Positions 2,349 through 47,216 of a DNA stretch of 64,000 bases are shown here, piece by piece. How positions within the stretch are numbered: position 1 is the stretch's first letter; the number at the start of each line of letters is the position of its first letter. The notes under the pieces are model-generated. The model worked only from the letters and a program-made list of their open reading frames with translations. It had not been told where the DNA came from and made no database searches. The DNA comes from Candidatus Brocadiaceae bacterium (GTDB lineage Bacteria > Planctomycetota > Brocadiia > SM23-32). Position numbers and translations under genes: made by a program. The DNA is taken from positions 27,325 to 91,324 of the forward strand of contig PUMJ01000156.1 of the NCBI GenBank assembly GCA_003551305.1. Reading direction: 5' to 3'.

Positions 2349-2359
2349 GCGGTCGCTCC

Positions 2360-4847: not shown

Positions 4848-6215
4848 TCACCGCCGGTTGCCGCCCTCCAGGAACCGGGCGTGCAGCCGTCGCCTCAACT
4901 CCGACACCACTTTCGGCCGGTCGGCGGCGACGTTGCGCAGTTCGTCCGGGTCTTCCTGGAGGTCGTAAAGCTCGTCCGGCGCGTTGTAGTTGTCTATCAG
5001 CTTATAGCGACGGGTGCGGATGGCGCGGAAGTTCGTGATGGCGCTGACGGCGTCCTCCCGGTGCTCGTCGGTCTCGCCCCGCAACAGCGGCGCCACGGAC
5101 CGGGCGTCCACGTTTTCCTGCGGGGGCAGGCCGGCCAGCTCGCAGATGGTGGGGTTGACGTCAATCAGTTCCACCAGCCCGTCCGACACGCGGCCGCCCT
5201 CGACGCCCGGCCCGGCGACGATGAGAGGCACCCGCACGGATGCCTCGTAGGCGACGCTCTTGGTGTAGAGGCCGTGGTCGCCGAGCATCTCGCCGTGGTC
5301 GCTGGAGAACAGCACGATGGTGTTCTCCAGCATCCCGCGCTCTTCGAGGGCGTCCAGCATCAGGCCGACCCGGTCGTCAATGAGCCGGATGGCGCCGCAG
5401 TACTGCCGCCGGGTGACGGCGACCTGCTCCGGCGTGGCGTCCTTCATACGTCGCCGCACCCAGGCCGGCTTGCCATCCCCCGGCTCGATGATGGGCGGGG
5501 GCACTTCCGCATCGCGGTACATGTCGGCGTACTCGGTGGGCGGGTCGAAGGGGTCATGCGGGCCGACAAAGCTGACGAAGTAGCACCAGGGGAAGTCGTC
5601 CGGGACGGTGCGGATCCAGTCGGCCGCCCGCCGCCCGATGTAAGAGTCCTCGAAGTGCTCGGTGGGCAGCACCGAGTCCCACGAGGCGCCGACGTTCCAG
5701 CCCCGGGCGGCCCGCTTCTTGTAGTCTTCGTGGAACTGCTGCAGCAGCCCGTGCTCCTGCAGGTAGAAGTTGTAGGGGCCGCGGGGCGTTGCAGAATTGC
5801 CCGCGTGCATCTTGCCCTCGCACTCCTCCGGGTGCGTGAAGCCCCAGCCGTAGACGCAGGGTCTGTCGCCGTGGCGGCCGTTGTAGGGGTCGGGTTTGGC
5901 CAGGTCGAGCTTTCCGATGCAGCCGACGCGGTAGCCGGCGTCGCGCAGCCGCTGGTAATAGGTGCGCGTGCTGAACGGGAGGAAGGCGCCATTGCCCAGA
6001 GCCCCCAGGCGCGCCGGCTGCAGCCCGGAGGCCAGCCCGATGCGAGCCGGAGCGCAGACGGGGCTGTTGGTGATGCACTGAGTGAAGCGCACCCCCCGCT
6101 CGGCCAGCCGGTCCAGGTTCGGCGTGTGCAGGAAGCCGGCCCCCGCGCAGCCCATGTAGTCGTGCCGGTGCTGGTCGTCCATGATGAATAGAATGTTGGG
6201 GCGGCCGGCGGGCAT
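4848..6215 (-). CDS. sulfatase (Cys-type, formylglycine-dependent)
   Basis: MPAGRPNILFIMDDQHRHD N-terminus; C-x-P-x-R motif SPVCAPARIGLASG; sulfatase-like length and C-terminus; GGTGGAGAG RBS. No signal peptide. Confidence 0.85.
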   Translation of the reverse strand: MPAGRPNILFIMDDQHRHDYMGCAGAGFLHTPNLDRLAERGVRFTQCITNSPVCAPARIGLASGLQPARLGALGNGAFLPFSTRTYYQRLRDAGYRVGCIGKLDLAKPDPYNGRHGDRPCVYGWGFTHPEECEGKMHAGNSATPRGPYNFYLQEHGLLQQFHEDYKKRAARGWNVGASWDSVLPTEHFEDSYIGRRAADWIRTVPDDFPWCYFVSFVGPHDPFDPPTEYADMYRDAEVPPPIIEPGDGKPAWVRRRMKDATPEQVAVTRRQYCGAIRLIDDRVGLMLDALEERGMLENTIVLFSSDHGEMLGDHGLYTKSVAYEASVRVPLIVAGPGVEGGRVSDGLVELIDVNPTICELAGLPPQENVDARSVAPLLRGETDEHREDAVSAITNFRAIRTRRYKLIDNYNAPDELYDLQEDPDELRNVAADRPKVVSELRRRLHARFLEGGNRR

Positions 6216-9720: not shown

Positions 9721-11066
9721 ATCTCTGGCAGCTCGAACTCGTCGCCCGTCTCGGCGATCCACGCGGCCAGTCTGCCCTGAAGGCGCCGGCGCTCGGCGCG
9801 GAAACGCGTGTTGTGGGCCAGGTTGGCCTGCTCGTACGGGTCCTCGTTCAAATTGAACATCAGCCAGGGCTGCCCCTCCAGGCAGGCATATTTCCACCCA
9901 TCCGGGGTGACCACCGCCCGCCAGGGCCGGTCCACGCTGTCGCCGTGGCCGGTGGGGACCACCAGTTGCAAGTAGGCCGAGTCCGGCTCCTCGCGCCGCT
10001 CGCGGCCCCGGACGATGCGGCCGGAGTAGTCGGTGCCGCGCATCGCGTCGGGCGGCTCGATGCCGCACAGGCCCAGGCTGGTCGGCGCGATGTCCACGTG
10101 GTTGACGGGCGCCCGCGGCCGGCCGTGGTGGTGCGTGTAGCGCCCGCCGAAGCGGTAGACGATGAACGGCATGCGGACGGATTCCTCCCAGGCGGTCGTC
10201 TTGCGGAACTGCCCGTGCGAGCCGTGCATGTCCCCGTGGTCGGAGAAAAAGACGACGTAGGTGTCTTCGGCGAGACCGGCCTCCCGCAGCGCCTCGTTGA
10301 CGCGGCCGACGTTCCAGTCCAGGTTCTCTATCTGCGCGTAGTAGCCGGCCAGTTCCCGGCGGGCCTGCTCCACGACGCGCGGCACGTCCGGGACGTTCGG
10401 CCGCAGTTCCACGGCGCCGGGCGTGTGCTGCGCCATCCACTCCTGCGGCGCCACGTAGGGGCCATGGGGCGGCTGCACGCTGAGGACCGCGAAGAAGGGT
10501 CGGTCCGCCCGTTCGCCTTCGCCGCCCTCGTGGATATAGTCTATGAGCATGTCGGTCAGGCAGTCGGTCTCGTAGCCCGGCAGGCGGTAATGGAAGGCGT
10601 CCTCCCCCTCGCCGCCGTGCACCCAGCAATCCCACTGGGCGTTGTTGTTGTCGTAGCCGGTCCAGACATCGAAACCGCCCCGCCGCTCCGGGGGCACGAT
10701 GTGCATGGCGGACCGGCCGTTGCCCTCCTTGAAGCCGTCCAGGTGCCACTTGCCGAAGTAGGCGGTCTGGTATCCGGCGTCACCGAACGCGTGGGCGACG
10801 GTCGGCTGCTCGGGCGGCATGGGGTATTCGTGGCCCGGCACGCACTCGTGGGGATAGAGGCCCGTCAAGAGCGAGCCGCGGAACGGGCAGCAGAGGGGGC
10901 AGCCGGCCACGGCGCCGGGGAAGGAGATGCCCTCGGCCGCCATGCGGTCCAGGTTCGGCGTGTGGACGTTGGGGTCGCCGGCATGGCCGACGGCCTGGCC
11001 GCGGTGCTGGTCTCCGAATATCCAGATGACGTTCGGCCTGCGAGACTCCTGGGTCTGTTCGCTCAC
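9717..11066 (-). CDS. sulfatase (Cys-type)
   Basis: RRPNVIWIFGDQHRG...CPLCCPFRGSLLTG (C-x-P-x-R)...FFSDHGDMHGSHG. Probable GTG start at 11066 (AGGAAG 8 nt upstream); the track Met at 11267 lies in unlikely GC-rich sequence. Confidence 0.75.
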   Translation of the reverse strand: MSEQTQESRRPNVIWIFGDQHRGQAVGHAGDPNVHTPNLDRMAAEGISFPGAVAGCPLCCPFRGSLLTGLYPHECVPGHEYPMPPEQPTVAHAFGDAGYQTAYFGKWHLDGFKEGNGRSAMHIVPPERRGGFDVWTGYDNNNAQWDCWVHGGEGEDAFHYRLPGYETDCLTDMLIDYIHEGGEGERADRPFFAVLSVQPPHGPYVAPQEWMAQHTPGAVELRPNVPDVPRVVEQARRELAGYYAQIENLDWNVGRVNEALREAGLAEDTYVVFFSDHGDMHGSHGQFRKTTAWEESVRMPFIVYRFGGRYTHHHGRPRAPVNHVDIAPTSLGLCGIEPPDAMRGTDYSGRIVRGRERREEPDSAYLQLVVPTGHGDSVDRPWRAVVTPDGWKYACLEGQPWLMFNLNEDPYEQANLAHNTRFRAERRRLQGRLAAWIAETGDEFELPEI

Positions 11067-11267
11067 CGGGAGGGTCTTCCTTTCGCGCTGGGGCGATGGC
11101 GTCGGCCTATCGTGCCCCAGGGCTGCGGCCCTGTCAAACGGGAATGCTGAACATGTCCGCCGGTGCGACGGGGACCTGCGGCCTTTGCAGGAAGGGAAGA
11201 CGAAGGCGTCTCCCCCACCCGGCGGGGGCGGCACAATGAGCCCGACGGCCCCCCTGGGGCGCCACAC

Positions 11268-33298: not shown

Positions 33299-33399
33299 CG
33301 TGAAAGCATCGCCCCCGGGGGCATGCCTGCGTGCGGCTGCGCCCGGCGCCGCGAAACACGCAACTTTCGCAGAACCGGACAAACAGTGAAGGAGAGATC

Positions 33400-34737
33400 A
33401 TGCGGCTTCGGGTTAGCCCCGACGGGCATTTTCTGCAGCATGCAGACGGAACGCCGTTCTTCTACCTGGCCGACACGGCGTGGATGCTGGCCAACAAGCT
33501 GACGGAAGCGGAAGCACGCCGCCTGTTCGAGGACCGGGCCGCGAAGGGCTTCACGGCGATCCAGGCCGTGGTCTTTCGAGACATGTTCGAGGTCAACACC
33601 CCGAACGTGTACGGCGTCCGTCCTTTCGCCGGCGAGGCTGAACTGCACGCCGTGGAGATCAACCCCCGGTGGATCGAGTATGTGGTCCGCCTGACGAACG
33701 TGGCGGCGGAATACGGTCTGGTGATGGCCTGGCTGCCCACGTGGGGCGACAAGTGGAATGAGCACTCCAACTCGGCAGGCCCCGTCGTCATGGACGAGCG
33801 CTCGGGCGAGGCCTACTGCCACGATCTTTCCGATGCCCTCGGGGAGTGTGAGAACGTGATCTGGATCCTCGGCGGGGACAGTCCCATCAGGACCCAGGCG
33901 CACGCCGATATCGTGCGCGCCATGGCGCACGGTATCCGGGCCGGTGCGAGCGGGGACCGGTTGATCAGCTACCATCCCTCGGGTGGCTCGTCGTCGGCCA
34001 TCTTCCACGCTGAAGCCTGGCTGGACATCAACGCCGTGCAGTCGGGGCACGCCCGGTTGAACGTGCCGAACTACCGCTCGATCGAAACGTTCTATCACAC
34101 GTCGCCCCCCAAGCCCTGCCTGGATTTCGAGCCCAACTACGAGGGGATGCCGGTCGGCTTCGGCCGCCAGAACGGCATCGAACCGGAGCAGCGCGCCTTC
34201 TTCGACGACTACGACGTGCGCCGGAGCCTCTACCGCAGCGTGCTGGCGGGCGCGGCGGGCTTCACGTACGGCTGCGATCCGGTGCGCCAGATCTACCGGC
34301 CCGGCGACCGATGCCATGCATGGGACGGTCGCTGCATCGAGACGTGGAGCGAAGCACTCGATGCGCCGGGTTCGTCCCAACTGCAACTGCTGAAGCAACG
34401 GCTGTTGGAGCGCAGCTACTTCTCCCGGCTGCCCGCCCAGGAACTGCTGCTGGAGCCGAAAAGCGACGGCGCCGACCATCCCGTCGCGCACGCCGCCGTC
34501 GCGCGCTGCAGCGAAGGCGGTTACATTATGGTGTATGTCCCGATCCGTCAGATGCTTACCATTGACACATCGGTCCTGGCGGCCCGGCGACTCCGCGTAT
34601 CCGTCTACGGCCCCGAAGCCTGCGTATGCCGTCGATCATGGGAAATGGACAACGAGGGAGTCTTCCGTTACATCCCGCCACGGAGGCTTGACACGTTCAT
34701 CACGATCGACGCGGTGGAGCCGGAGGGTACGGTGTGA
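33400..34737 (+). CDS. DUF4038 (GH140-like) putative glycoside hydrolase
   Basis: From Met24 (GAAGGAGAG RBS): MRLRVSPDGHFLQHADGTPFFYLADTAWMLANKLTEAEARRLFEDRAAKGFTAIQ is the conserved DUF4038 N-terminus. Confidence 0.65.
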   Translation: MRLRVSPDGHFLQHADGTPFFYLADTAWMLANKLTEAEARRLFEDRAAKGFTAIQAVVFRDMFEVNTPNVYGVRPFAGEAELHAVEINPRWIEYVVRLTNVAAEYGLVMAWLPTWGDKWNEHSNSAGPVVMDERSGEAYCHDLSDALGECENVIWILGGDSPIRTQAHADIVRAMAHGIRAGASGDRLISYHPSGGSSSAIFHAEAWLDINAVQSGHARLNVPNYRSIETFYHTSPPKPCLDFEPNYEGMPVGFGRQNGIEPEQRAFFDDYDVRRSLYRSVLAGAAGFTYGCDPVRQIYRPGDRCHAWDGRCIETWSEALDAPGSSQLQLLKQRLLERSYFSRLPAQELLLEPKSDGADHPVAHAAVARCSEGGYIMVYVPIRQMLTIDTSVLAARRLRVSVYGPEACVCRRSWEMDNEGVFRYIPPRRLDTFITIDAVEPEGTV

Positions 34738-36176
34738 TAGACAGGAGTAGCCCCACGCGGGCTGCCGCCACCTGTCCGACATGTTCTATCCTATTCGCCT
34801 TGAGCAAAACGCGGCCAAACGACCGAAAGGGCCATATTGTGGTCAATTCACCGCCACCGGGATCGAAACCGCCGCTGCGCTTCGAAGTCATTGTGTGCGG
34901 CGGCGGACCGGCCGGGATATGCGCCGCCATCACCGCCGCCGAGACCGGGCGACGGACGCTTCTGGTCGAGGCCGCCGGACGACTGGGCGGGACCGGCGTC
35001 AACGCCCTGGTCAACCAGATTCGCCGCTGGACCGACACCTCATACGTGGAGCGCTTCCTCGATCGCCTGGACGGCTTTGTGGACGACAGCGAGTTCCTCG
35101 ACCTGCGCTATGCTGACCTGGTGCAAGAGGCCGGCGCCGAGATACTTCTGCATGCCACCGTGGGGGAGACGGTGCTGCGGCCTGTTGCGCAAGGGAGTGG
35201 GGGGCCGACGGTGGCCGGTGTGCGCCTGGCCACACCCTCCGGACCGCTGACGGTCGAGGCCGAACGTGTGGTCGATGCCAGCGGCGATGGTGTCGTCGCC
35301 TTCCTGGCCGGTGCGGCCTTCGACTGCGGTCGCCCGGAAGACGGCCTGATGCAGCCGGCGACCATCATGTTCAGGGTCGGCGGCGTCGACCACCCGGCGA
35401 CTATGGAGGCCCGGGGCGGCCGCGGCAGCTACCGCTTCCCCGATGGTTCCACCTGGGACCAACTTACCATGGCTGCCTGCGCCCGCGGCGAGTTGCCGCC
35501 CAATGTCGGCAAGGTACGGACCTATCCGGCCGAGCGCCGGGACGAACGCTACATCAATGCTACCCAGATTAACCATGTCGACGGAACCGACCCCTTCGAC
35601 CTCACCCACGCCGAACTGGAGGGGCGCCGCCAGGTGCCTGTGATCATGGACTTCCTGCGTCGATACGCCCCGGGCTTCGCAGATGCCTACGTGTCTTTGA
35701 TGCCGGCGGTGGTGGGGATTCGGGAAACACGGCGCTTCCGTGGGCTGTACACTCTACGCCGCGAGGACTGCCTGACCGGTCGGAGGTGGGATGATGCGGT
35801 GGTGACCGGTTGCCGGGCACCGATAGACATCCACAACCCGGATGGACCGGGACAGGTCGAAGGAGTTTCGAAGGAACACCCGGCCGGACGTGACCCCGCC
35901 CCGCAACCCTACGACATCCCCTACGGTTGCCTGGTACCCGAGGCTCTCGACGGTCTGCTGCTGGCCGGCCGCTGCATCAGCGGTGACCATGGCGCCCACG
36001 CCTCCTACCGCTGGCAATCGCTGTGCATGGCCACCGGGGCAGCCGCCGGCTTCGCCGCCGCCGCATCACTGGATCAGAATGTGCAACCTCGCGATCTTGA
36101 CATCCGCCCCGTCCAGAACGCCCTGGGGATCGTCCGTCCGCAGGACGCCTCCAACGCGGAAGGGACCCAACCATGA
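34734..36176 (+). CDS. FAD-dependent oxidoreductase (PF12831-like), paralog 1
   Basis: FEVIVCGGGPAGICAAITAAETG (GxGxxG)...GDGVVAFLAG... Start uncertain: the track GTG at 34734 overlaps the upstream TGA (GTGA); an alternative GTG lies at 34839. Confidence 0.6.
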   Translation: MIDRSSPTRAAATCPTCSILFALSKTRPNDRKGHIVVNSPPPGSKPPLRFEVIVCGGGPAGICAAITAAETGRRTLLVEAAGRLGGTGVNALVNQIRRWTDTSYVERFLDRLDGFVDDSEFLDLRYADLVQEAGAEILLHATVGETVLRPVAQGSGGPTVAGVRLATPSGPLTVEAERVVDASGDGVVAFLAGAAFDCGRPEDGLMQPATIMFRVGGVDHPATMEARGGRGSYRFPDGSTWDQLTMAACARGELPPNVGKVRTYPAERRDERYINATQINHVDGTDPFDLTHAELEGRRQVPVIMDFLRRYAPGFADAYVSLMPAVVGIRETRRFRGLYTLRREDCLTGRRWDDAVVTGCRAPIDIHNPDGPGQVEGVSKEHPAGRDPAPQPYDIPYGCLVPEALDGLLLAGRCISGDHGAHASYRWQSLCMATGAAAGFAAAASLDQNVQPRDLDIRPVQNALGIVRPQDASNAEGTQP

Positions 36177-37501
36177 CTGACAATGCTGAACGCATCACCT
36201 GGAACCGCCGCCTCCCACTGCGCTACCGCTGCGACGTGGCGGTGATCGGCGGCGGCATCGCCGGGGTCTGCGCCGCCTGCGCGGCCGCCGTCGAGGGGGC
36301 CGAGGTCATCCTTGTGGAGCGCTTTGCCGTGACCGGCGGCAACGCCACGGTCGGTGGTGTGGCCAACTGGTCGGGCGAGACCGCCGGCCAGGGCGCCATC
36401 TTTGATGAGATTATCGCGGACCAGGAGGAGTGTAACAGCATCGCCCCCTATCGCGGCCCTTACGCCCGCGAGCGCGCCAACCGGACCTTCGACCACGAGA
36501 TACTGGCTGTAATCCTCCAGGAACTGCTGCTGCGGCATGGGGTGCGCCTGCTGCTGCACACACGCTTTGTGGACATCCAGCGGGAAGGTGGTCGGCTGGG
36601 GCCCGCGGTGCTGGCCGGCGCGTCCGGCCTGGAAGCGCTCGACGCCGAGGTGTTCGTCGACACATCGGGTGGCGCGGTGGTGGCCCGGGCCGCCGGCTGC
36701 GCGCTGCTGCCGCCGGGCGGTCTCGGCCCGTTGCCCCCGTCGCTGATGTTCTTCGTGCGTGAACTGGCGGAGCCGGTCGGCCCGCAACTGCCCGACGGCT
36801 GGTTCGAGCCGGTCCGGAGCGAAGGGGACCTGCCGATGACCAGCACCTGGCCCGATGGCCCGGGCGGCAAGGCGCTGAAGCTCAAGGTTCCCGGTTACGA
36901 CAGCGGCGACACTGAATCCATGACCGCCCTCGAGGTCCGGGCGCGCCGGAGGATGTGGGAGGTGCTCGACTACTATCAGCGCGACTTCCGGGGCGAAGCC
37001 GCGCCCGCACTACGAAACCAGCCGAAAAACGCCGGGGTGCGAAACTGGCGGTTCGGGCACGCTTCCCCTATCATCGGCCTGCGCGAGACCCGGCGCATCG
37101 CGGGGGACTACGTGCTGACCGTTGACGATCTGCGGGCCGGCCGGGCTTTCGACGACGGCGTCGCCCGCGGCGTCTTCTACCTCGACGCCATGCGCCCCGA
37201 CGACGAGCAACGCACCTATCTGTTGAGCAAGGATGAGCAAGTCGTGCCGCCCTATCACATCCCGTACCGCAGCCTGATTGCGCGCGACACCGCCAACCTG
37301 CTGATGGCCGGCCGCTGCTTCTCGGCCGACCAGATGGCCCTCTCCTCGGCCCGGGTCATGCCGACCTGCGCGATGATGGGCCAGGCCGCCGGCATCGCCG
37401 CCGCCTGGAGCGCCGATCGGGGTTGCCGACCACGCGATCTCGATGGACGCGAGCTGCGGCGGCGGCTCGAAGCGCGCGGCGCGAACCTGAATCTGCCATG
37501 A
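36173..37501 (+). CDS. FAD-dependent oxidoreductase (PF12831-like), paralog 2
   Basis: CDVAVIGGGIAGVCAACAAAVEGAEVILVER (GxGxxG)...; ATGA overlap with paralog 1; same domain order. Confidence 0.65.
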   Translation: MTDNAERITWNRRLPLRYRCDVAVIGGGIAGVCAACAAAVEGAEVILVERFAVTGGNATVGGVANWSGETAGQGAIFDEIIADQEECNSIAPYRGPYARERANRTFDHEILAVILQELLLRHGVRLLLHTRFVDIQREGGRLGPAVLAGASGLEALDAEVFVDTSGGAVVARAAGCALLPPGGLGPLPPSLMFFVRELAEPVGPQLPDGWFEPVRSEGDLPMTSTWPDGPGGKALKLKVPGYDSGDTESMTALEVRARRRMWEVLDYYQRDFRGEAAPALRNQPKNAGVRNWRFGHASPIIGLRETRRIAGDYVLTVDDLRAGRAFDDGVARGVFYLDAMRPDDEQRTYLLSKDEQVVPPYHIPYRSLIARDTANLLMAGRCFSADQMALSSARVMPTCAMMGQAAGIAAAWSADRGCRPRDLDGRELRRRLEARGANLNLP

Positions 37502-37511
37502 AGGAAAGACG

Positions 37512-37673
37512 ATGAGTGATCGCCCCGGCATCCTGCTGCTGATGACCGACCAGCAGCGCCGGGATTCCCTCGGCCCTGTGACACTGTCCGGACCGCGTCG
37601 GTATCCGCGACTTGCTGCTGGAACGCCTGCTCGACTGGTTCAGCACACATGAGCTGATACCGCAAAGGACACC
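37512..37673 (+). pseudogene. internally deleted sulfatase remnant (N-terminal and C-terminal fragments only)
   Basis: RBS AAGGAAAG then ATG: MSDRPGILLLMTDQQRRDSLG (canonical sulfatase N-terminus). After a frame change: IRDLLLERLLDWFSTHELIPQRTP (sulfatase-like C-terminal helix), whose TGA overlaps the ATG of intact sulfatase 37674. Confidence 0.5.
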
Positions 37674-38978
37674 ATGAAGAAACGTCAACCCAACATCATC
37701 CTCTTCCTTTCCGACGATCTCGGTTACAATGACCTGTCATGCTACGCGCCGGAACGGCATCACACCCCGCATATGGATCGTCTGGCCGAGGAGGGGCTCC
37801 GCTTCACGGATTTCCACAGCAACGGCGCCGTCTGTTCGCCGACCCGCGCCGCGCTTCTGACCGGCCGGTACCCCCAGCGCTGCGGCGTGGAACACGTCCT
37901 GCCCGGCATCAAGCCCGGCGGCGGCAAGGCGCGCGCTGGTGAGCGGGCGACGTTATCCCCATCGGACTTCAACCTGGGCCGCGCGTTCGCGCAGGCCGGA
38001 TACGCGACCGCGTTTTTCGGCAAGTATCACACGGGATACCTTCCCGATCAATCGCCGCTCAAAATGGGGTTCGCCGAGTTCCGCGGCATCTGCGGCGGCA
38101 TGGATCACCATTCCCGCTACAACCGCTGGGGGGCTCTCAACTGGTGGGTCGGTCAGACCCCGCAGCAGGAAGATGGCTACGCCACCGATCTTATCACCGA
38201 TCACGGCCTGCGTTTCATCACGGAACATCGTGACGAACCCTTCCTGCTGTATCTGGCGGACTGGTGCGTCCATTTCCCCTGGCAGGGCCCCCATGATCCG
38301 GCCGATTTCCGCGACGGGGTCGACAACGACCGCACCCCGGGCAAATGGGGGAGCCAGTATCCCCGACGCCACCGCCAGGCCTACCGCGAGATGGTCGAGG
38401 CCCAGGACCGCAACCTGGGCCGGATCGCCGACACCCTGGACGCACTGGGGCTACGCGAAGACACCCTGCTGATCTTCTGTTCGGACAACGGCGGCCATCA
38501 TGAGGTGACGGACAATGCCCCCCTGCGCGGCCACAAGGGCGACATGTTCGAGGGCGGCCACCGGGTGCCGGCCTTCTGTCGCTGGCCGGGGCGCATCCCG
38601 GCCGGACGCGTCAGCCAGGACGCGGCCATGACCATGGACCTGTTGCCCACCCTGCTGTCCATTTCCGGCATCGCACCCCCGAAGGGCGGGGACTTCGACG
38701 GGATCGACCTGTCCGCACATCTCTTCCGGGGCACCCCCCTGCCGGAACGGCCGCTGTTCTGGCGGGGGGGTTCCGAGAAGGCCGCCGCCCGCCAGGGCCG
38801 CTGGAAATACGTCCGACAGGGCGGTCGGGAATGGCTCTTCGATCTGGCCGAGGACCTCGGCGAGAGCACCGACCTTCTGGCGGGCTACCCCGAGCGGGCC
38901 GCCCGGCTCAGGCAGGCCCTGGCCCATTGGGAGCAGGATGTCGACACCTCCTACCAGCTATCACGGAGCGGAACATGA
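37674..38978 (+). CDS. sulfatase (Cys-type)
   Basis: MKKRQPNIILFLSDDLGYNDLS...AVCSPTRAALLTGRY (C-x-P-x-R)...IFCSDNGGH...GHKGDMFEGG; no signal peptide. Confidence 0.85.
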   Translation: MKKRQPNIILFLSDDLGYNDLSCYAPERHHTPHMDRLAEEGLRFTDFHSNGAVCSPTRAALLTGRYPQRCGVEHVLPGIKPGGGKARAGERATLSPSDFNLGRAFAQAGYATAFFGKYHTGYLPDQSPLKMGFAEFRGICGGMDHHSRYNRWGALNWWVGQTPQQEDGYATDLITDHGLRFITEHRDEPFLLYLADWCVHFPWQGPHDPADFRDGVDNDRTPGKWGSQYPRRHRQAYREMVEAQDRNLGRIADTLDALGLREDTLLIFCSDNGGHHEVTDNAPLRGHKGDMFEGGHRVPAFCRWPGRIPAGRVSQDAAMTMDLLPTLLSISGIAPPKGGDFDGIDLSAHLFRGTPLPERPLFWRGGSEKAAARQGRWKYVRQGGREWLFDLAEDLGESTDLLAGYPERAARLRQALAHWEQDVDTSYQLSRSGT

Positions 38979-39026
38979 ACCAGACCTGTTCTCAACAGCG
39001 AATTGCTGAATCCGAGGAATGGTAGC

Positions 39027-39968
39027 ATGCGCGTGTTCAATCCTTATGAGAACGCTTTTTCGCGTCACTGGTTCAAAGGCGATCTTCATCTGCACAGTGA
39101 TCGCAGTGACGGCCGCGCTTCCGTGCCGCAGATCCTGGATCGGCTGCGAGCGTGCGGCTTTGATTTCGCCGCATTATCCGATCACGAATGTTATGGCCCT
39201 ACCGATGAGCGAACCTCGCCCATACTCATCGGCAACAGCGAAATGCGCAGCGCCGAGGGTGGTGACGTGCTGACATTGTTCGCCGAGGTGTCGAACGATC
39301 CTGGGGGAGCGGGCGTACAGGATTTAATCGACCGGACGCGCGCCAACGGTGGGCTAGCCGTGCTGGCTCATCCGAAAATCGGTGAATTCGGAACAACCAA
39401 GCATCACTGGGCCTATCCATGCCATGCGTTGATCGGCAATTATCATGGCTATGCTGGCCTGGAAGTCTATACGCACAATGTCGGCAGTGGTTTCCAGACA
39501 GCCATCGACAGGCTTGATGCCGTCTGGATCGCAGGCTGCCGGGACGCAAACGAATCGATGGCGATCTGGGGACTGGCCGGCAGTGATGCGCATGATCTCA
39601 ACTGCATCACGCCCGATGTGGGGATTCTTGTCTCGGCGACCGAATGCTCGGCATCCGCTCTGCGCGCCGCCATTCAACAAGGCAGTTTCTACTCCCTGGC
39701 CGGATCGTGCGCCCGCTTTACCGACATCAGCGTCACCGGCAATCGACTGCGCGTAGAAGCTGAGAACGCCAAAATGATACGGATCAAGGGCGGTCCACTA
39801 TCCAGCAATCCAGGAGACCGAACGACCCATGCCGTGGCATGGGCCGGAGACAGCGAAAGTGTATTGTGTGAATACGAGATTCGTGGGTCGGAAGGGTTTG
39901 TGAGGGCTGAAGCATCGGATCGGCACGGCGGCCTTATTTTTGCGAACCCAATCCGTTTAGGCCGATAG
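39027..39968 (+). CDS. PHP-domain metal-dependent phosphoesterase (CehA/McbA-like)
   Basis: From Met9 of the track ORF: MRVFNPYENAFSRHWFKGDLHLHSDRSDGRASVPQILDRLRACGFDFAALSDHE...LAHP...GSDAHD. Confidence 0.7.
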   Translation: MRVFNPYENAFSRHWFKGDLHLHSDRSDGRASVPQILDRLRACGFDFAALSDHECYGPTDERTSPILIGNSEMRSAEGGDVLTLFAEVSNDPGGAGVQDLIDRTRANGGLAVLAHPKIGEFGTTKHHWAYPCHALIGNYHGYAGLEVYTHNVGSGFQTAIDRLDAVWIAGCRDANESMAIWGLAGSDAHDLNCITPDVGILVSATECSASALRAAIQQGSFYSLAGSCARFTDISVTGNRLRVEAENAKMIRIKGGPLSSNPGDRTTHAVAWAGDSESVLCEYEIRGSEGFVRAEASDRHGGLIFANPIRLGR

Positions 39969-39970
39969 CA

Positions 39971-40141
39971 ATGAGCAACAGGCACGATCCCGCCCACAAA
40001 CACATCCGCGACCGCTTACTGGAAAGCCTGCTTGTCTGGTTACGGCAACACGAACCAGTGACCCACAGGAGCACGATGACCCGTCGACCCAACATCATTT
40101 TCTTCCTCGCCTCCTATCACTCCGTGAGGAACCACCCATGA
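39971..40141 (+). pseudogene. sulfatase-array junction remnant (C-terminal fragment of one sulfatase plus N-terminal fragment of the next) as a 56-codon ORF
   Basis: MSNRHDPAHKHIRDRLLESLLVWLRQHEPVTHRST-MTRRPNIIFFLASYHSVRNHP*. The IRDRLLESLLVWLRQHE part is homologous to the tail at 37583..37673. MTRRPNIIFFLAS is a sulfatase start with AGGAG 5 nt upstream. The TGA overlaps the BNR gene ATG. Confidence 0.45.
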
Positions 40142-41406
40142 ACCAGACATACCACCATATCCGCGTGACCGACCGGGGGGATCAGGTGGCGACCATCGAC
40201 ATGGTGCCGCCGGAGCGCACGCCCCGCTGGGCCGAGGGCGTGGCGGCCGGTAATCGCCCCTGGTCGCCGCCGACCGAAGAGCCGGTCTTCCACCCGCCCA
40301 TCGCCTTCGTCGTGCCGCCGCCGGAGGGTTCCGGCGAGCCCTTCTACTCCCACAACCATCAGCCCGCCATCACCTGGTGCGCCAACGGCGATTTGCTGGC
40401 GGCATGGTACTCGACCGAGCGAGAGCGCGGCACCGAGATGACCGTGCTGGCCAGCCGTCTGCGCACGGGCCGCCAGGCCTGGGATCCGGCCGCCGAGTTT
40501 TTCAAGGCCCCGGACCGCAACATGACCGGCACCGCGCTCTACCACGACGGCCGCGGCACCCTCTACCATTTCAACGGCATGGGGCTCGAGGGCACAGAAG
40601 GCTGGGAGCGGCTCGCCCTGCTGCTGCGCACCAGCACCGACCACGGGGTCACTTGGTCGCCGGCCCGGCCCATCTCCTCGGGTTCCCGTTACCAGCGCCG
40701 GCATCAGGTGATTGCCGGCACCAGCCGCGGCCCCGACGGCCTGCTGATCCAGCCCTGCGACGCCACACCGACCGGCAAAGGTTCCAGCTGCGTCCATCTC
40801 AGCACTGACGGCGGGCAGACGTGGCACGATCCGGGCGGCGACATCCGTGGCATCCACGCCGGGGTGGTCGCCCTCGACGATGGCCGCCTGCTGGCCTTCG
40901 GGCGCGCGCAGGCCCTCGACGGTCGCATGCCGATGAGCATCTCCGATGACCGGGGTGCGAGCTGGCGCTCGCTGCCCGGCCCCTTCCCGCCGATCGGCAC
41001 CGCCCAGCGCTTGGTGCTGCTGCGCCTGCGCGAAGGGCCGTTGCTGCTGGCCTCCTTCACCGGCGCGACCCATCGCCTGCCGCGTGAGCAGTGGCCCGGC
41101 ATGCCCTTCCAGGACGCCAGGGGGCGCTCCTTCACCGGCTACGGGCTGTTCGTCGCCTGCTCGTGGGATGCCGGCCAGACCTGGCCGTTGCGCCGGCTGC
41201 TGACCCCGGGGGCCGGCACCTGGGACGGCGGCGGCCACACCGGCCTTTTCACCGGCAGCGCCACCGAGGCCGAACCAAAGGGCTACCTGGCCGCCACCCA
41301 GCCCCCGAACGGCGTGATCCACCTGATCTCCAGCCGACTGCACTACCGCTTCAACCTGCCCTGGCTGACCGGGGGCGGTGAGCATGGCGGCAGTGACCAA
41401 CGATGA
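40138..41406 (+). CDS. BNR-repeat sialidase-like beta-propeller protein
   Basis: Asp-boxes STDHGVTWS, STDGGQTWH, SDDRGASWR, SWDAGQTWP; 422 aa; no signal peptide. Confidence 0.7.
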   Translation: MNQTYHHIRVTDRGDQVATIDMVPPERTPRWAEGVAAGNRPWSPPTEEPVFHPPIAFVVPPPEGSGEPFYSHNHQPAITWCANGDLLAAWYSTERERGTEMTVLASRLRTGRQAWDPAAEFFKAPDRNMTGTALYHDGRGTLYHFNGMGLEGTEGWERLALLLRTSTDHGVTWSPARPISSGSRYQRRHQVIAGTSRGPDGLLIQPCDATPTGKGSSCVHLSTDGGQTWHDPGGDIRGIHAGVVALDDGRLLAFGRAQALDGRMPMSISDDRGASWRSLPGPFPPIGTAQRLVLLRLREGPLLLASFTGATHRLPREQWPGMPFQDARGRSFTGYGLFVACSWDAGQTWPLRRLLTPGAGTWDGGGHTGLFTGSATEAEPKGYLAATQPPNGVIHLISSRLHYRFNLPWLTGGGEHGGSDQR

Positions 41407-42230
41407 CCGGGCAACCGGAAGGATCCGCGATGACAGACGACACCCCGGCGCAGCCGACCTTCGGCGGGCACGAAGCGTTGCCCGGGTTCACCAGCACCCC
41501 TCACCCGCTGCCGGACGGTCGGGAACTGACCGCTTGGAGTCGTCCCGGAAATGGCCCGACCCTCATCCTGATCCCCGGCACCTGGGGCGATCTGCAGAGT
41601 TGGTCCCCGCTGATCTCACGCCTGCCGCCGGAGCAGGCCATCATCGTGGTGGAGTTGTTCTGGCAGGGCGGTCGAGCGTTGCTGGACGGCCCGCTGGACA
41701 TCCCGGTGCTCGCCGATGCCGTCCAAAGGGTCATTGATGCTCTGCAGCCGGGCCCGTTCGTGATCGGCGGCATAAGCCTGGGCGGGATGATCACAGTGGA
41801 GATCGCCGGGCGGAATCCTGCCGGCCTGGTCGCGGCCATCCCGATGGAGGGCTGGACACATCATAGCGTGCGCGAAACGGCATTCCACGGCCTTGTCCAC
41901 ACTCCTCTGAGCCCGGATCAGGAGCGGCGCCGTCTCGCCGAACGGAGCCGCCGTCTGGCGCACCTGTCCCCCGAACAGCAGGCCGCCGTCGGGTCCATCT
42001 GGCGGCGGTGGAACGGCGCCGACGCCCTTGCCCGCTCCACGGTCCCCATCCTCCACATCTGGGGCGACAGGGGCCGCCCGCGCCCCGAACCCGCCGACCT
42101 GCAGATCCCGCGGCGGCCGAACATTACCGTAGCCTGGATCGCTGGTTCGTCACATCGTTTGCTGCTCCAGGCGCCCGATGCCCTGGTTCGGACGGTGCGC
42201 AACTTCCTGGCCTCAGCGGGTTCTCCATGA
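41403..42230 (+). CDS. alpha/beta-hydrolase fold protein
   Basis: Nucleophile elbow GGISLGG; LILIPGTWGD; 275 aa; ATGA overlap with the upstream gene. Confidence 0.7.
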   Translation: MTGQPEGSAMTDDTPAQPTFGGHEALPGFTSTPHPLPDGRELTAWSRPGNGPTLILIPGTWGDLQSWSPLISRLPPEQAIIVVELFWQGGRALLDGPLDIPVLADAVQRVIDALQPGPFVIGGISLGGMITVEIAGRNPAGLVAAIPMEGWTHHSVRETAFHGLVHTPLSPDQERRRLAERSRRLAHLSPEQQAAVGSIWRRWNGADALARSTVPILHIWGDRGRPRPEPADLQIPRRPNITVAWIAGSSHRLLLQAPDALVRTVRNFLASAGSP

Positions 42231-42357
42231 CCCGTCTGCTGATACTAACTCCGCACCCCGGCAAGCCGAATGACCGACATCCACGACAGGGGCCCCGCCC
42301 GATCGCAACGTGCAGCCCGTTGCCCCCGCCATACCCATTCATAGATTGGACTCCCGT

Positions 42358-43830
42358 ATGAACAGGCCGAACATCCTCTTGATCCAGACAGATCAGCACA
42401 ATGCGCACCTGGCCGGGTTTGCCGGCCATGGCACCGTCCGGACTCCGGCTCTGGACCGTTTGGCGGCGCGTGGCACGGTCTTCGATGCCGCTTACTGCCA
42501 ATCGCCGCTCTGCGTACCAAGCCGCACCAGCATGCTGGCGGGCACCTACGTGCCGAAGTGCGGGGCCTGGGACAACGGATCGGTCCTCTTCCCCGAACAC
42601 ACCACACTGCCGGGGTGGATGGGCGATCATGGTTACGTCAGCGCCGCTGTGGGGAAGATGCACTTCCGCGGCCGCGAACAGATGCACGGCTGGCAGCATC
42701 GCCCCTTTGGCGACCTGGTGGAATGCATCGCCCCGATGCATCAGCCCGATCCACCGGAGACCGCCGACGGGCGCTGGAACCGTCACGCCGTCGGTCGGTT
42801 CCCCTTCGCCGGGCCGACGCACATCCCCGAGGGTCTGCTGGCCGACCCCCTCATCACCCGCGAGAGCCTGGCCTGGCTCGCCGAATACACCGCGTCCGGC
42901 GACGATCGGCCCTGGTTTTTCTGCGCCTCTTACCAGCGGCCACATTTCCCCCTCACCGCCCCCGAACGCTACATCCGGGCCGCCCTCGATGCCGACCCGG
43001 ACCTGCCCGAACCGCCCCCCGACGACCTTGATCAGCTGCATCCCCATGATCGGTTCATCGTCGAGGATTTCCGACTGCGGAGATTTGCACCGGAGGAGCA
43101 TCGCCGTGCCCTGGCGGGCTACCATGCCTGCGTCGCCTTTGTCGACGATTGCATCGGCGACTTGCTCGCCGGCATGGAGCGGCTGGGGCTGTTGGAGAAC
43201 ACCTGCATCGTTTACACCTCCGACCACGGCGACATGGCTGGCGAGCACGGCCTGTGGTGGAAGCGGACCTACTACGAGGCCTCGGCCCGCGTGCCGTTGA
43301 TCATCGCCGGGCCGGGCCTGCCCGCCGCCGAACGCGTTGCGACCCCGGTCGAGCTGGTTGATCTCTTCCCCACCCTGTGCAACTGGGGCGGATTCGGAGT
43401 GCCCGAGGGGCTGGACGGCGAGGATCTCTCCTGCCTGCTCGACCCGGCTCGCAGACAGCAGCGGCGCAAGCGGGTAGCCCGCTCAGAACTGCTGGGGGAG
43501 ACAACGTCCACCCGGTTCCGCATGGTCCGTGATGAACGCTGGAAGCTGGTCGCCTTTCCCGAGGCACCCTCCCGGCTGTTCGATCTCCGCGACGACCCCG
43601 ACGAACGGACGGACCTCGCCGGTTCGCCACCGGCCGACGCGCCGATGGAACAGTTGCAGGACGCCCTCCGTGGGGGCCACGACTGGCAGGATCTCGAGCG
43701 CTGCCGGCAGCGGGACCGCCAGCGCGCCGCCGCCTTCCGCAGTGACACACGCAGCCCGAGCACCATGCAATACCGCCTGCGCGACGGACGCATCATCCCC
43801 GGCGACGCCCAGTTGTACGACCTGGCGTGA
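42358..43830 (+). CDS. sulfatase (Cys-type)
   Basis: MNRPNILLIQTDQHN...YCQSPLCVPSRTSMLAGTY (C-x-P-S-R)...YTSDHGDMAGEHG; no signal peptide; start at Met17 of track ORF 42310. Confidence 0.85.
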   Translation: MNRPNILLIQTDQHNAHLAGFAGHGTVRTPALDRLAARGTVFDAAYCQSPLCVPSRTSMLAGTYVPKCGAWDNGSVLFPEHTTLPGWMGDHGYVSAAVGKMHFRGREQMHGWQHRPFGDLVECIAPMHQPDPPETADGRWNRHAVGRFPFAGPTHIPEGLLADPLITRESLAWLAEYTASGDDRPWFFCASYQRPHFPLTAPERYIRAALDADPDLPEPPPDDLDQLHPHDRFIVEDFRLRRFAPEEHRRALAGYHACVAFVDDCIGDLLAGMERLGLLENTCIVYTSDHGDMAGEHGLWWKRTYYEASARVPLIIAGPGLPAAERVATPVELVDLFPTLCNWGGFGVPEGLDGEDLSCLLDPARRQQRRKRVARSELLGETTSTRFRMVRDERWKLVAFPEAPSRLFDLRDDPDERTDLAGSPPADAPMEQLQDALRGGHDWQDLERCRQRDRQRAAAFRSDTRSPSTMQYRLRDGRIIPGDAQLYDLA

Positions 43831-43860
43831 GAACCTCGCTTGCTGTTCAACAGCGGGGGG

Positions 43861-44062
43861 CCACAGGCTGCACGTGCGCAGCCGGCTGCGGGGGATCACG
43901 CGTGAAAGGCTCTCAGCGTGCCCTGCTTCGGACAAGCGGAGCCGAGCAAGTGCAGCGGCTCAGTCGCCGCTGTGCCGCTTGCTCCTCCCGCTTCTCTGCG
44001 CCGCGAATACCTCCACAGGCCTTTCCGATGGAGCGGGTGCCCGTCTGGGAAGGAGCGGGGGA
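43861..44062 (+). repeat. intergenic repeat family A, copy 1 (~202 bp)
   Basis: About 88% identical to 46615..46817 by eye over its full length. Contains nested palindromes ggctgcacgtgcgcagccggctgc and an imperfect long inverted repeat gagcaagtgcagcggc...gccgctgtgccgcttgctc. Confidence 0.7.
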
Positions 44063-44212
44063 AAACAGGAGTTTCCCCGAAAACCGGAGGGGGTGGGCAG
44101 CAAGTGGTTGGCCTGACGAGGGTTATGCTTTTGGGGATATGGAAGGCAGGATTCTCCGGTAAGATAGGCTAACCGAGGTGGTCCTTTTGGGGAATCTCCG
44201 GGTAGGAAAACC

Positions 44213-44241
44213 TTGACCTCCCCCAACCCGCCCCCTAAAGT
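44213..44241 (+). promoter_or_regulatory. putative sigma70-like promoter for the GH-A gene
   Basis: TTGACC - 17 nt - TAAAGT, about 70 nt upstream of ATG 44311. Confidence 0.3.
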
Positions 44242-44310
44242 GAACGGAGACGGTAAACACTTACGGCCGCGTTTCGCCCGCACTAATATGACCTTCGAAA
44301 CGAGTCTGCG

Positions 44311-46575
44311 ATGTCCAATCCGTTGCTGACCATTCTGGCCGGATGTTTCCTGATCACCGTCGGCCTGCAGGCCGCCTCCGCCGCAACCGAGGGCGAGTCG
44401 CCCCGTCAACTCCAGGAGCGGACGACCTGGCCCTGTCCGCTTCCGCCCGACACGCTCGATCCCGCCGCGCTGTTGGACCTGCGCTATCTGAACGAGGAGC
44501 AGGCCGGCATGCACGGGTTCGTCAGCGTCGACGCCGAGGGCGGCTTCCGGCGTGGCGACGGTGAACCGCTGCGTTTCTGGTCCACGGTCGTGAAGTGGCA
44601 GACCAAAGACCCGGCCGAGATGGACCGCCTCGCCGGCTGGCTGGCCAAGCGGGGCGTGAACCTGGTGCGGCTGCACCCGCGGATCTGGACGCGCGAGGTC
44701 AAGCAGTTCGGTCAGATCGACCGCCAGGAGCACGACCACGTCCGCCAGATGGTGGCGGCCCTGAAGAACCACGGCATCTACACCCAGTTGCTGCTCTACA
44801 GCGCCATGGACGGCCAGGGGCTGCATGACCGCGTCGAAGGCGTGCCGGTCGGGCGGGAAGTCCGCTCGCCGCTGCAGACGGGCATCCTGTTTCTGCACGA
44901 GGGGCTCCAGGAGTTCCTGAAAGAATGGACCACCGCTCTGTTGACCGAGCCCAACCCCCATACGGGACTGCCGCTGGCCGAGGACCCGGCCGTGGCCCTG
45001 ATCGAGATCCAGAACGAAGACTCGCTGCTGTTCCACACTGTCAGAAACCTCCAGGGCGAAGACCTCAGGCTGGCCCAGTCGCTGTACGGCCAATGGCTGG
45101 CCCAGCGGTACGGCAGTCTGGAGCAGGCGCTCACGGCCTGGGGCGGTGCGCGGGCGGAGGGCGATGATCTCGCCGAAGGCCGGGCCGGCTTCTACCACCT
45201 CTGGGACCTGACCCGCGCGGGCATGGCCCACCATCGTCCCAGCGCGGCCGCGCGCCGGCGAATGGCCGACCAGACGCAGTGGTACACCGAGACGATGCGC
45301 AACTTCAACAAGGAGTTCATCACGTTCCTTCGCGAGGAGTGCGGCGTACGGGTGCCGACTATCCCGGGCAACTGGCGCACCGCCGACGACGTGACTCTCA
45401 TCGAGAACGAGCGCTACAGCTATGCCGTCGGCGAGGTGATCGCCGCCAACCGCTACTTCACCGGCGTCCACGCCGGGTCCAGGACGCACTACTGGGTCAG
45501 CCAGGACGACCACTTCGCGCCGGCCGCGATCGTGCTGGAGCCCGAGAGGCTTCCGATCAATGTCCGCCAGTTCAAAGGCAAGGCCTTCGCCGTCCCCGAG
45601 ACGATGTGGGTCGAGCCCAACACTTACCAGAGCGAGGGCGCACTGGCGATCGCGGCCTACCAGTCGCTCACCGGGGTCGACATCGTGCATTGGTACCACC
45701 AACGCGGCGACGACTGGCATACCCCCGCCACCTGGCGGCCAGGCTACGGGAAGTTCTCGGCCAACACACCGATGATCCAGGGCCTCTGGCCCGCGGCGGC
45801 GCTGCTGTTCCGTCAGGGGTACCTGCAACAGGCCCGGCCGGTGCTCATCGAGCGCCGCAGCCTGCAGGCGCTGTGGCAGCGCGAGGAGCCGGTCATCGCC
45901 GAGCAGGCCGTCTTCGACCCCAACCGCGACATCAGCGATGAGGCTCGGGCAAGCGGCTTTGAGGGCCCGGTCGATCCACTGGCGTTCATGGTCGGGCCGG
46001 TGCTGGTGGACTATTCCGAGGATCCCCAGCCCAGCGAGCTCATCGACCTGACGCCCTACATCGACCGGGACGGCCGGATCGTGCGGGCACGGACCGGCGA
46101 GATCGCGCTCGACTACGGCCTGGGTCTGCTCCGCGTGGAAGCCCCGAAGGTGCAGGCGGCCGCGGGCTTCCTCGGGCGGGCCGGGCGGCAGGAGTTCGCC
46201 GACGTCACCATCGACAGCGGCAACGAGTTCGCCAGCGTCATCATCATCGCGATGGACGATCGGCCCCTGCGCGAGTCGGCCCGGGTGCTCGTCCAGGTCG
46301 GCACGCGCCAGGAGCCGACAGGCTGGGACGTGGAAGAGGCCGAGTTCACCACCAGGGACCAGACCGTCCAGGGCTTCAAGATCGTCGATGTCGGCGGTCC
46401 CCCGTGGCAGATCGAGCGGGCCGACGTGCGGGTCCGCGTGGCGAACCCGTCCCTGCGCACGGCACACGTGCTCGACATCAACGGCATGCCTGTCGCCACC
46501 GTGCCGCTTGATCGCGACACCGACAGCGTGACCTTCCGCTTCCCGGTCGACGCGTTGTACGTCGTGCTTGAGTAG
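44311..46575 (+). CDS. secreted clan GH-A (TIM-barrel, GH5-like) glycoside hydrolase
   Basis: Signal peptide MSNPLLTILAGCFLITVGLQAASA; acid/base-like IEIQNEDS; 754 aa; family not assigned. Confidence 0.6.
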   Translation: MSNPLLTILAGCFLITVGLQAASAATEGESPRQLQERTTWPCPLPPDTLDPAALLDLRYLNEEQAGMHGFVSVDAEGGFRRGDGEPLRFWSTVVKWQTKDPAEMDRLAGWLAKRGVNLVRLHPRIWTREVKQFGQIDRQEHDHVRQMVAALKNHGIYTQLLLYSAMDGQGLHDRVEGVPVGREVRSPLQTGILFLHEGLQEFLKEWTTALLTEPNPHTGLPLAEDPAVALIEIQNEDSLLFHTVRNLQGEDLRLAQSLYGQWLAQRYGSLEQALTAWGGARAEGDDLAEGRAGFYHLWDLTRAGMAHHRPSAAARRRMADQTQWYTETMRNFNKEFITFLREECGVRVPTIPGNWRTADDVTLIENERYSYAVGEVIAANRYFTGVHAGSRTHYWVSQDDHFAPAAIVLEPERLPINVRQFKGKAFAVPETMWVEPNTYQSEGALAIAAYQSLTGVDIVHWYHQRGDDWHTPATWRPGYGKFSANTPMIQGLWPAAALLFRQGYLQQARPVLIERRSLQALWQREEPVIAEQAVFDPNRDISDEARASGFEGPVDPLAFMVGPVLVDYSEDPQPSELIDLTPYIDRDGRIVRARTGEIALDYGLGLLRVEAPKVQAAAGFLGRAGRQEFADVTIDSGNEFASVIIIAMDDRPLRESARVLVQVGTRQEPTGWDVEEAEFTTRDQTVQGFKIVDVGGPPWQIERADVRVRVANPSLRTAHVLDINGMPVATVPLDRDTDSVTFRFPVDALYVVLE

Positions 46576-46614
46576 ACCCAGCTTCGATGCGGCAATACGC
46601 CCGCAGGTGGATGT

Positions 46615-46817
46615 CCACAGGCTGCACGTGCGCAGCCGGCTGCGGGGTGATCGCGCACGAAAGGATCTCAGCGTGCGCTGCTGCCGACTACCGGAGCCGG
46701 GCAAGTGCAGCGGCTCAGCCGCCGCTGTGCCGCTTACTCCTCCCGCTTCCCTGCGCCGCGAATACCACCACAGGCCTTTCCGATGGAGCGGGTGGCCGTC
46801 TGGGAAGGAGCGGGGGA
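46615..46817 (+). repeat. intergenic repeat family A, copy 2 (~203 bp)
   Basis: Direct-orientation copy of 43861..44062 in the next intergenic region downstream. Confidence 0.7.
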
Positions 46818-46909
46818 CAAGCCCTTGACATATCCTATACAGTCGAATAAGCTTGGTTCCAGGCGACAGGACCGGCTGGCGGGATCGGAAGGGGAGGAGG
46901 CGGCCCACT

Positions 46910-46969
46910 CGGGCGTTACTGACCGATTTGGGCGGGTGGCGGTGTGCTCTGCGAAACGAATCCATTTGC
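46910..46969 (+). repeat. 60-nt element B (inverted copy of 4573..4632)
   Basis: The reverse complement shares an exact 23-mer (gcaaatggattcgtttcgcagag) and a further cccaaatcgg.cag...cgcccg block with 4573..4632. Confidence 0.6.
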
Positions 46970-47216
46970 TCCTTGACGTGCTTAAGATAACATCGTGCAA
47001 CACTGAAGCAGTCGTACAATCGCCGTCGTCTGTGCATCCGGCCACAAAGCCGGCGGGCAAGCGTCGTGGTTACCCTGGTTCCTGCGCCCACAATCCCTGC
47101 TCAGGCGGGCGAGGAACCCGTCGCGCAACCCCGGTGCCTGTCTACGCGTCTCTTGAATCGTCAGATGGCTAATCGACCTGTTGCTCACTGACCTTAAGGA
47201 TAGAAGGGCTGCACCG

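Follow-up and report, generated by a model that had tools for sequence, protein, structure and literature searches.

Directly upstream of an intact sulfatase gene, here called sulfB, lies a 160-bp stretch of DNA that begins like a sulfatase in one reading frame and ends like a sulfatase in another. Is it a small gene in its own right, a regulatory leader for the gene that follows, or the residue of something larger? The answer developed below, for a window that comprises the whole 64,000-nt stretch of DNA under analysis, is that these 160 bp are very probably the two remaining ends of a sulfatase gene (sulfA) that suffered one internal deletion, and that together they form a non-functional scar. 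It is a case of ordinary gene decay and not a new element.

The locus and its operon

The region is one long plus-strand operon in which many genes are joined by 4-nt stop/start overlaps, and its closest genome matches are metagenome-assembled genomes (MAGs) of the PVC group. Bacteria of the PVC superphylum carry very large sets of sulfatase genes, with large tandem arrays (PMC6388578). The genes on either side of the scar are the following:

33331-34737, plus strand: apiosidase-like gene
34734-36176, plus strand: FAD_oxidored paralogue
36173-37501, plus strand: FAD2, an FAD-dependent oxidoreductase gene, intact and ending in TGA (Pfam PF12831, 4.5e-84)
37674-38978, plus strand: sulfB, intact gene for a 434-aa sulfatase (Pfam Sulfatase, 3.6e-58)
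39027-39968, or from a TTG at 39003, plus strand: PHP-domain gene, complete
40138-41406, plus strand: BNR/sialidase-like gene, intact (Pfam PF13088, 5.9e-23)
41403-42230, plus strand: alpha/beta hydrolase gene
42310-43830, plus strand: another sulfatase gene

Between FAD2 and sulfB, comparison with three other genomes (L002, L020 and L025) resolves the scar into these parts:

37501-37511, plus strand: SD-like AAGGA and spacer of the former sulfA, retained (read directly; collinear with L025 and L002)
37512-37652, plus strand: 46-codon ORF made of the N fragment and an out-of-frame read-through, ending 22 nt 5′ of the sulfB ATG
37512-37574, plus strand: N-terminal sulfA fragment, codons 1-21, MSDRPGILLLMTDQQRRDSLG (18 of 21 residues identical to L025 sulfA)
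37572-37581, plus strand: deletion junction, GGCCCTGTGA (from alignments with L002, L025 and L020)
37576-37677, plus strand: C-terminal sulfA fragment, the last 33 codons with their stop, shifted to the +1 frame with respect to the N fragment

The AAGGA (37501-37505) stands 6 nt 5′ of the ATG at 37512, from which the 46-codon ORF reads MSDRPGILLLMTDQQRRDSLGPVTLSGPRRYPRLAAGTPARLVQHT followed by a stop; the 21 codons of the N fragment are continued by 25 more up to the TGA at 37650-37652. In the +1 frame, 37576-37677 reads L, a stop, HCPDRVGIRDLLLERLLDWFSTHELIPQRTP and a second stop. As the initial annotation had claimed, this last TGA (37675-37677) overlaps the ATG (37674-37676) of the intact sulfatase gene at 37674-38978. 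The C fragment also contains the SD-like AAGGA of sulfB (37665-37669), 4 nt before the sulfB ATG. A Pfam hmmscan of both scar fragments returned no family at E-values up to 10, the fragments being too short, and the scar holds no sulfatase catalytic domain, since the CxPxR formylglycine motif falls in the deleted segment. The 46-residue product has no exact copy in a collection of 15 billion proteins.

An intact sulfatase gene at the same position

What the scar once was can be read from related genomes. L025, which was reached through a member of the 90% cluster of the window's own sulfB, carries in order the 3′ part of FAD2, an intact gene for a 480-aa sulfatase (879-2321), sulfB (2318-3607), BNR and the hydrolase, and its sulfA and sulfB share the same ATGA stop/start overlap. 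A check of related strains had been proposed for an intact extra sulfatase at this position, and L025 has one in precisely that place, with the FAD oxidoreductase on one side and the sulfB orthologue on the other. L020, found by looking up sulfB orthologues, likewise has an intact 480-aa sulfatase whose stop overlaps the start of the sulfB orthologue (ATGA), and it carries three sulfatases in a row. The sulfB orthologues are 95% (L002), at least 90% (L025) and 83% (L020) identical to that of the window. The L025 sulfA is a genuine S1 sulfatase, with matches to PDB sulfatases down to 1e-41 and a CxPSR motif. The scar was thus rightly taken for the lost member of a tandem sulfatase pair, the intact pair being present at the same position in L025 and in L020.

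Both fragments match the ends of this gene. The N fragment is identical at 18 of 21 positions to residues 1-21 of the 480-aa sulfatase of L025 (E 1e-16), and the C fragment matches residues 453-474 of the same protein at 68% identity (E 1e-9). Because of these matches, the resemblance of the fragments to sulfatase ends is not a matter of chance. The view that an SD-preceded ATG opens an ORF with a sulfatase N-terminus holds as it was given. The proposed switch to a sulfatase C-terminal frame holds as to its likeness to sulfA, but the frame is broken by the TGA at 37579-37581 and is open only from 37582.

Alignments of the DNA place the deletion precisely. Positions 1-940 of L025 span FAD2 (its 3′ part, 1-868, at 91% DNA identity), the spacer and the first 62 nt of the sulfatase, and they align without a gap to 36634-37573 of the window (91%); on the other side, L025 2250-3631 aligns to 37603-38987 (84%). 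The window's 37529-37573 also matches L020 484-528 (93%). In L002, the N-side homology ends at L020 528 and the C-side homology starts at L020 1811, with L002 11403-12863 aligning to L020 1811-3271. The segment missing relative to L025 is nt 941-2221, a total of 1281 nt or 427 codons, in frame, with the 5′ breakpoint after nt 940 and the 3′ breakpoint before nt 2222, and L025 minus this segment aligns end to end with both L002 and the window. The internal deletion proposed by the initial annotation is thereby confirmed, although its size is 427 codons and not "about 400". Of the 480 residues of the protein, 22-448 are gone, and with them the catalytic CxPSR motif at residue 53. At the breakpoints there is only an imperfect repeat (GATTCCCTCGG and GAATGCCGCAG, 7 of 11 positions) and about 1 nt of exact microhomology.

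By these comparisons, sulfA, an S1 (formylglycine-type) sulfatase gene, once sat between the FAD oxidoreductase gene and sulfB in a long and tightly packed operon for the breakdown of sulfated glycans, and a single in-frame deletion of 1281 nt joined its codons 1-21 to the last 33 codons.

Age and decay of the scar

The closest relative, L002, is a MAG labelled Ca. Brocadiia with about 90-95% DNA identity to the window and with amino acid identities of 94% for FAD2 and 95% for sulfB. Window and L002 carry the deletion at identical breakpoints, and neither L025 nor L020 has it. We infer from this that the loss took place in an ancestor shared by the window organism and L002, once their lineage had separated from that of L025. 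In L002 the fusion is still an open ORF of 54 codons, MSDRLGPLLLMTDQQRRDSLGLWHDPDRLGIRDLLLERLIHWLRTHERMPARSA followed by a stop that overlaps the sulfB ATG. It matches sulfA 1-21 and 449-480 and was deposited as a hypothetical protein.

At the junction, where L002 reads CTCGG-CCTGTGGCAC, positions 37572-37581 of the window hold a window-specific extra C in a run of C and a TGG-to-TGA change (37579-37581). Compared with L002, L025 and L020, the window copy alone shows both the extra C (in the run 37574-37576) and the TGA, and these two changes broke, in the window copy, the fusion ORF that is still open in L002. The change of frame had at first been read as the mark of the deletion itself. The deletion is real, but it was in frame, as in L002, and the frame change is a later insertion of one C.

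The rate at which the scar has changed is equally informative. Between the window and L002, the flanking genes have dS values of 0.147-0.187 and a dN/dS of about 0.17 (0.165 for sulfB), and their differences fall mostly in third codon positions (10:15:63 for FAD2 and 9:9:48 for sulfB). In the scar, 27 of 171 sites differ (JC 0.177), along with one indel; the differences by codon position are 8:6:11, with no bias, and 13 of 53 residues are changed, versus 5-6% in the neighbours. Polarisation with outgroups assigns 18 scar changes to the window lineage and 12 to that of L002. Since the divergence of the scar equals the synonymous rate of its neighbours and shows no codon-position bias, the scar is decaying neutrally: it drifts at the neutral rate on both lineages, as estimated from two scar-bearing genomes and 171 sites, and it is not a conserved leader peptide. 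Divergence is lower in the N fragment (5/63) than in the C fragment (20/98); at counts of this size, the difference could be noise or could stem from a weak constraint on the old start region. Everything by which a gene remnant is recognised is present here, namely collinear homology to a syntenic intact gene, loss of indispensable parts, and neutral evolution with disabling mutations.

A second scar and a 1149-bp insertion

Downstream of sulfB, the window holds a second scar (rem2) within a segment of its own:

38974-38987, plus strand: direct repeat, left copy, CATGAACCAGAC(CT), at the sulfB stop/BNR start junction
38988-40136, plus strand: window-specific insertion of 1149 bp with the complete PHP gene and rem2, absent from L002 and L025
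39971-40141, plus strand: rem2, an open ORF of 56 codons, MSNRHDPAHKHIRDRLLESLLVWLRQHEPVTHRSTMTRRPNIIFFLASYHSVRNHP followed by a stop
40137-40150, plus strand: direct repeat, right copy, CATGAACCAGAC(AT), at the start of the intact BNR gene

Three parts can be told apart in rem2, with the C-terminus of a sulfA paralogue at about 39981-40075, the first 12 codons of a sulfB paralogue at 40076-40111 and roughly the last 10 codons at 40109-40141. Its TGA overlaps the BNR ATG, and it has been called as a protein in public data (P0153). The stretch 39981-40108 is 76% identical to L020 1815-1944, which is the last ~98 nt of sulfA and the first ~35 nt of sulfB; 40111-40199 is 79% identical to L020 3183-3271, which is the last ~30 nt of sulfB and the BNR start; and rem2 is 70% identical to L025 sulfA 451-477. 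A CCTCC microhomology lies at the junction of the deletion in the sulfB paralogue. Judging from these alignments, rem2 joins the C-terminal end of a sulfA paralogue to a sulfB paralogue that has lost about 1.24 kb from its interior.

In L002 and L025, sulfB is followed directly by BNR. The only two occurrences of CATGAACCAGAC in the window flank the 1149-bp segment, and after the left one a BNR stub (38975-39025) has 4 BNR codons left (MNQT) before unrelated sequence runs on to 39025. The segment is most simply read as an insertion in the window lineage, because BNR stands directly after sulfB in L002, L025 and L024 and because L020 keeps the BNR start there. No intact donor with the order PHP-sulfA′-sulfB′-BNR was found around the PHP homologues (L018, L019, L026-L028), scans of metagenome contigs with sulfB and with the PHP protein returned no relatives, exact look-ups of the window's FAD2 and PHP (P0002) returned no contig, and the 5′ end of BNR shows no mismatch gradient that would mark a crossover point. 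The C-terminus of the PHP protein (SDRHGGLIF...) resembles the N fragment of the first scar (SDRPGILLL...); this is a coincidence, as all PHP homologues end the same way and this C-terminus is native to the family.

Endpoints of the scars and other gene stubs

Other short stubs were seen in the relatives. At L002 14067-14111, only MTGQPEGSAMT (then NSI and a stop) is kept of the alpha/beta hydrolase, a gene that is intact in the window and in L025, and the window's 41435-47137 (the hydrolase, sulfC and more) is replaced in L002 by about 1.2 kb. At L020 3210-3272, about 21 codons of the BNR start follow sulfB (76% identical), the rest being unrelated Arg-rich sequence.

Endpoints of deletions and insertions fall repeatedly close to the ends of the genes that were lost, within their first 4-21 and their last 10-33 codons. 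This is seen in the first scar (remA), in both parts of rem2, in the BNR stubs of the window (at 38975) and of L020, and in the hydrolase stub of L002. Moreover, the 3′ breakpoint of the first scar (37576, L020 1811) and the left edge of the sulfA′ part of rem2 (39981, L020 ~1815) are about 4-10 nt apart when mapped to the intact gene, a coincidence expected at roughly 1-2% under uniform breakpoints. It is conceivable but doubtful that the scars of this operon family are not random leftovers, and that they are either "bridge ORFs" selected for the hand-over of ribosomes or products of a site prone to recombination where the C-terminal helix of the sulfatase begins. Chance, together with the way in which scars are recognised, may account for the near-end endpoints.

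Could the scar still have a function?

The alternative that survives best, unlikely as it is, holds that selection has kept the scar as a bridge for translational coupling, so that only deletions that preserve both ends of a gene survive. Such a bridge would preserve the passage of ribosomes from FAD2 to sulfB and would explain why gene starts and ends persist. In its favour, 4-nt stop/start overlaps abound in the operon, and the deletion kept the reading frame as well as, in L002, the ATGA overlap. The second scar is also an open ORF that reaches from 2 nt past the PHP stop to the BNR ATG, and other scars keep the 5′ ends of genes, as with the MTGQPEGSAMT of the L002 hydrolase and the 21 BNR codons of L020. 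An in-frame deletion has a one-in-three chance of occurring anyway, however, and the scars in the sample are few, only recognisable ones being countable. Moreover, the window copy is out of frame and stops 22 nt early, yet the sulfB gene behind it is undamaged and conserved (dN/dS 0.165). An AAGGA of its own precedes the sulfB ATG by 4 nt, and sulfB orthologues elsewhere work from quite different upstream contexts.

As a decaying remnant, the scar is probably still transcribed as part of the operon, and ribosomes probably start at the old sulfA SD and ATG and yield a junk peptide of 46 residues, terminated 22 nt short of sulfB, while sulfB itself would use its own AAGGA inside the retained 3′ end of sulfA. 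The sole residual role that seems plausible from this arrangement is a passive one, in which the scar would serve as a spacer and as ribosome-binding context for sulfB.

A second alternative, and a highly improbable one, is that the short ORF is a functional leader peptide or regulatory uORF that controls sulfB and merely resembles the ends of a sulfatase. Its SD and ATG are kept, the 54-codon ORF of L002 (annotated as a hypothetical protein) is open with a stop overlapping the sulfB start, and the N fragment is fairly well conserved, with 5/63 differences. Against this, divergence is neutral and without codon-position bias, a frameshift and a nonsense codon separate the window from L002, and L025 and L020 carry a full gene where the scar lies. 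Conservation of the short ORF as such, which the initial annotation had named as an argument for a leader peptide, was not seen in the comparison with L002. Neither the scar nor a sulfA gene precedes the sulfB orthologues of L021, L022, L023 and L024, and this absence of the short ORF also argues against a leader peptide. In L022, an ORF of 55 codons (3337-3504) shares 4 nt with the beta-helix gene before it and another 4 nt with the sulfB orthologue (73%); its 55-aa product has no similarity to sulfatase ends.

Signals of a regulatory kind were likewise absent from the scar. It contains no sigma-70-like promoter and no intrinsic-terminator-like site; across 36900-40400, one promoter-like and two terminator-like sites occur, all inside the PHP gene and no more than in shuffled sequences. 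An Rfam scan of 37300-40300 gave a single chance-level match elsewhere (E 0.94), and the folding energy of the scar is no better than that of shuffles (z = -0.42), with no attenuator structure.

A third possibility is that the two fragments come from two different genes, with a larger deletion having removed several genes between them. The window taken by itself is compatible with such an origin, and tandem sulfatase arrays do exist, as in the three consecutive genes of L020. It is nevertheless very hard to credit, given that the single 480-aa gene of L025 fills the space between FAD2 and sulfB and that both fragments are collinear with it, the gap being exactly 1281 nt. The window's own four sulfatases (4848-6215 and ~9729-11075, both on the minus strand, sulfB and sulfC) did not give rise to the fragments, which they match at the family level only.

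Least probable of all, an artefact of assembly or sequencing in a metagenome-assembled genome (a collapsed or chimeric contig, or homopolymer errors) might be invoked because the source appears to be a metagenome contig and the frameshift lies inside a CCC run, but mis-assembly is very unlikely because a separate Logan assembly (L001) has exactly the same sequence as the window and the same deletion with the same breakpoints occurs in L002, from a different sample and about 10% diverged at the DNA level, while the junction has no repeat long enough to mislead an assembler and the TGG-to-TGA change is not a homopolymer error. L001 may share the window's sample, so that the extra C is not independently replicated biologically; the TGG-to-TGA change does not depend on that C.

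The neighbouring genes in other genomes

Several observations concern the neighbours of the scar. In sulfB and in the intact sulfA genes, the catalytic domain begins right at the start and no signal peptide precedes it, which suggests that the window's sulfatases may act in the cytoplasm; a 49%-identical homologue (L007 8450-9838) has a twin-arginine-like signal (MKSINRREFILLSAGTVGLGALS). Sulfatases of the sulfA type, 48-52% identical to L020 sulfA, adjoin FAD2 homologues in distant MAGs labelled Clostridiales and Spirochaetia (L005 10001-14315 and L015 10001-12820), an arrangement that hints at an old functional link between the PF12831 oxidoreductase and this type of sulfatase. MAGs labelled Brocadiia, Phycisphaerae and Lentisphaerae (L002, L014, L017) contain homologues with 90-94% identity to FAD2, so either the taxonomy of these bins is unreliable or the gene moves horizontally.

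Implications for annotation

The finding matters mainly for annotation, in which the 46-codon ORF, the 56-codon ORF at 39971 and the 54-aa "hypothetical protein" of L002 should be marked as the gene scars they are rather than as small proteins. With the L002 ORF as query, a word-indexed protein search returned the 54-aa sequence itself only, and an exhaustive HMMER search against 1.84 billion representatives returned itself and one unrelated repeat protein (P0030). A literature search found no prior description of the scar. As an example of how an operon for sulfated glycans in a PVC-group bacterium loses and gains genes, the locus is small, well resolved and dated, and the loss here of one sulfatase that is kept in a close relative may reflect a narrower substrate range. 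The scar opens no new biological question.

Comparison with known systems

Among known systems, the S1 formylglycine-dependent sulfatases (PF00884) supplied the parts. With the intact 480-aa member of this family, the scar shares the N-terminal LLLMTDQQRxDSLG and the C-terminal helix, and the tandem arrangement with its ATGA overlap is retained. It differs in being without residues 22-448, including the CxPSR motif, and in having no Pfam match, and it cannot be an enzyme.

With leader peptides and uORFs, the scar has in common a short ORF with an SD and an ATG directly 5′ of a structural gene and, in L002, the stop/start overlap. It differs from them in that the peptide is not conserved, no attenuator structure is formed and the ORF is absent with other orthologues.

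The closest fit is the bacterial pseudogene that arises by internal deletion. Gene remnants of this kind reflect the deletional bias of bacterial genomes. The scar shares with them a syntenic intact orthologue, a lost catalytic core, disabling mutations and a synonymous-like rate of change, and nothing essential differs; its one peculiarity is that the deletion was in frame and left, in L002, a scar that came to be called a 54-aa "hypothetical protein".
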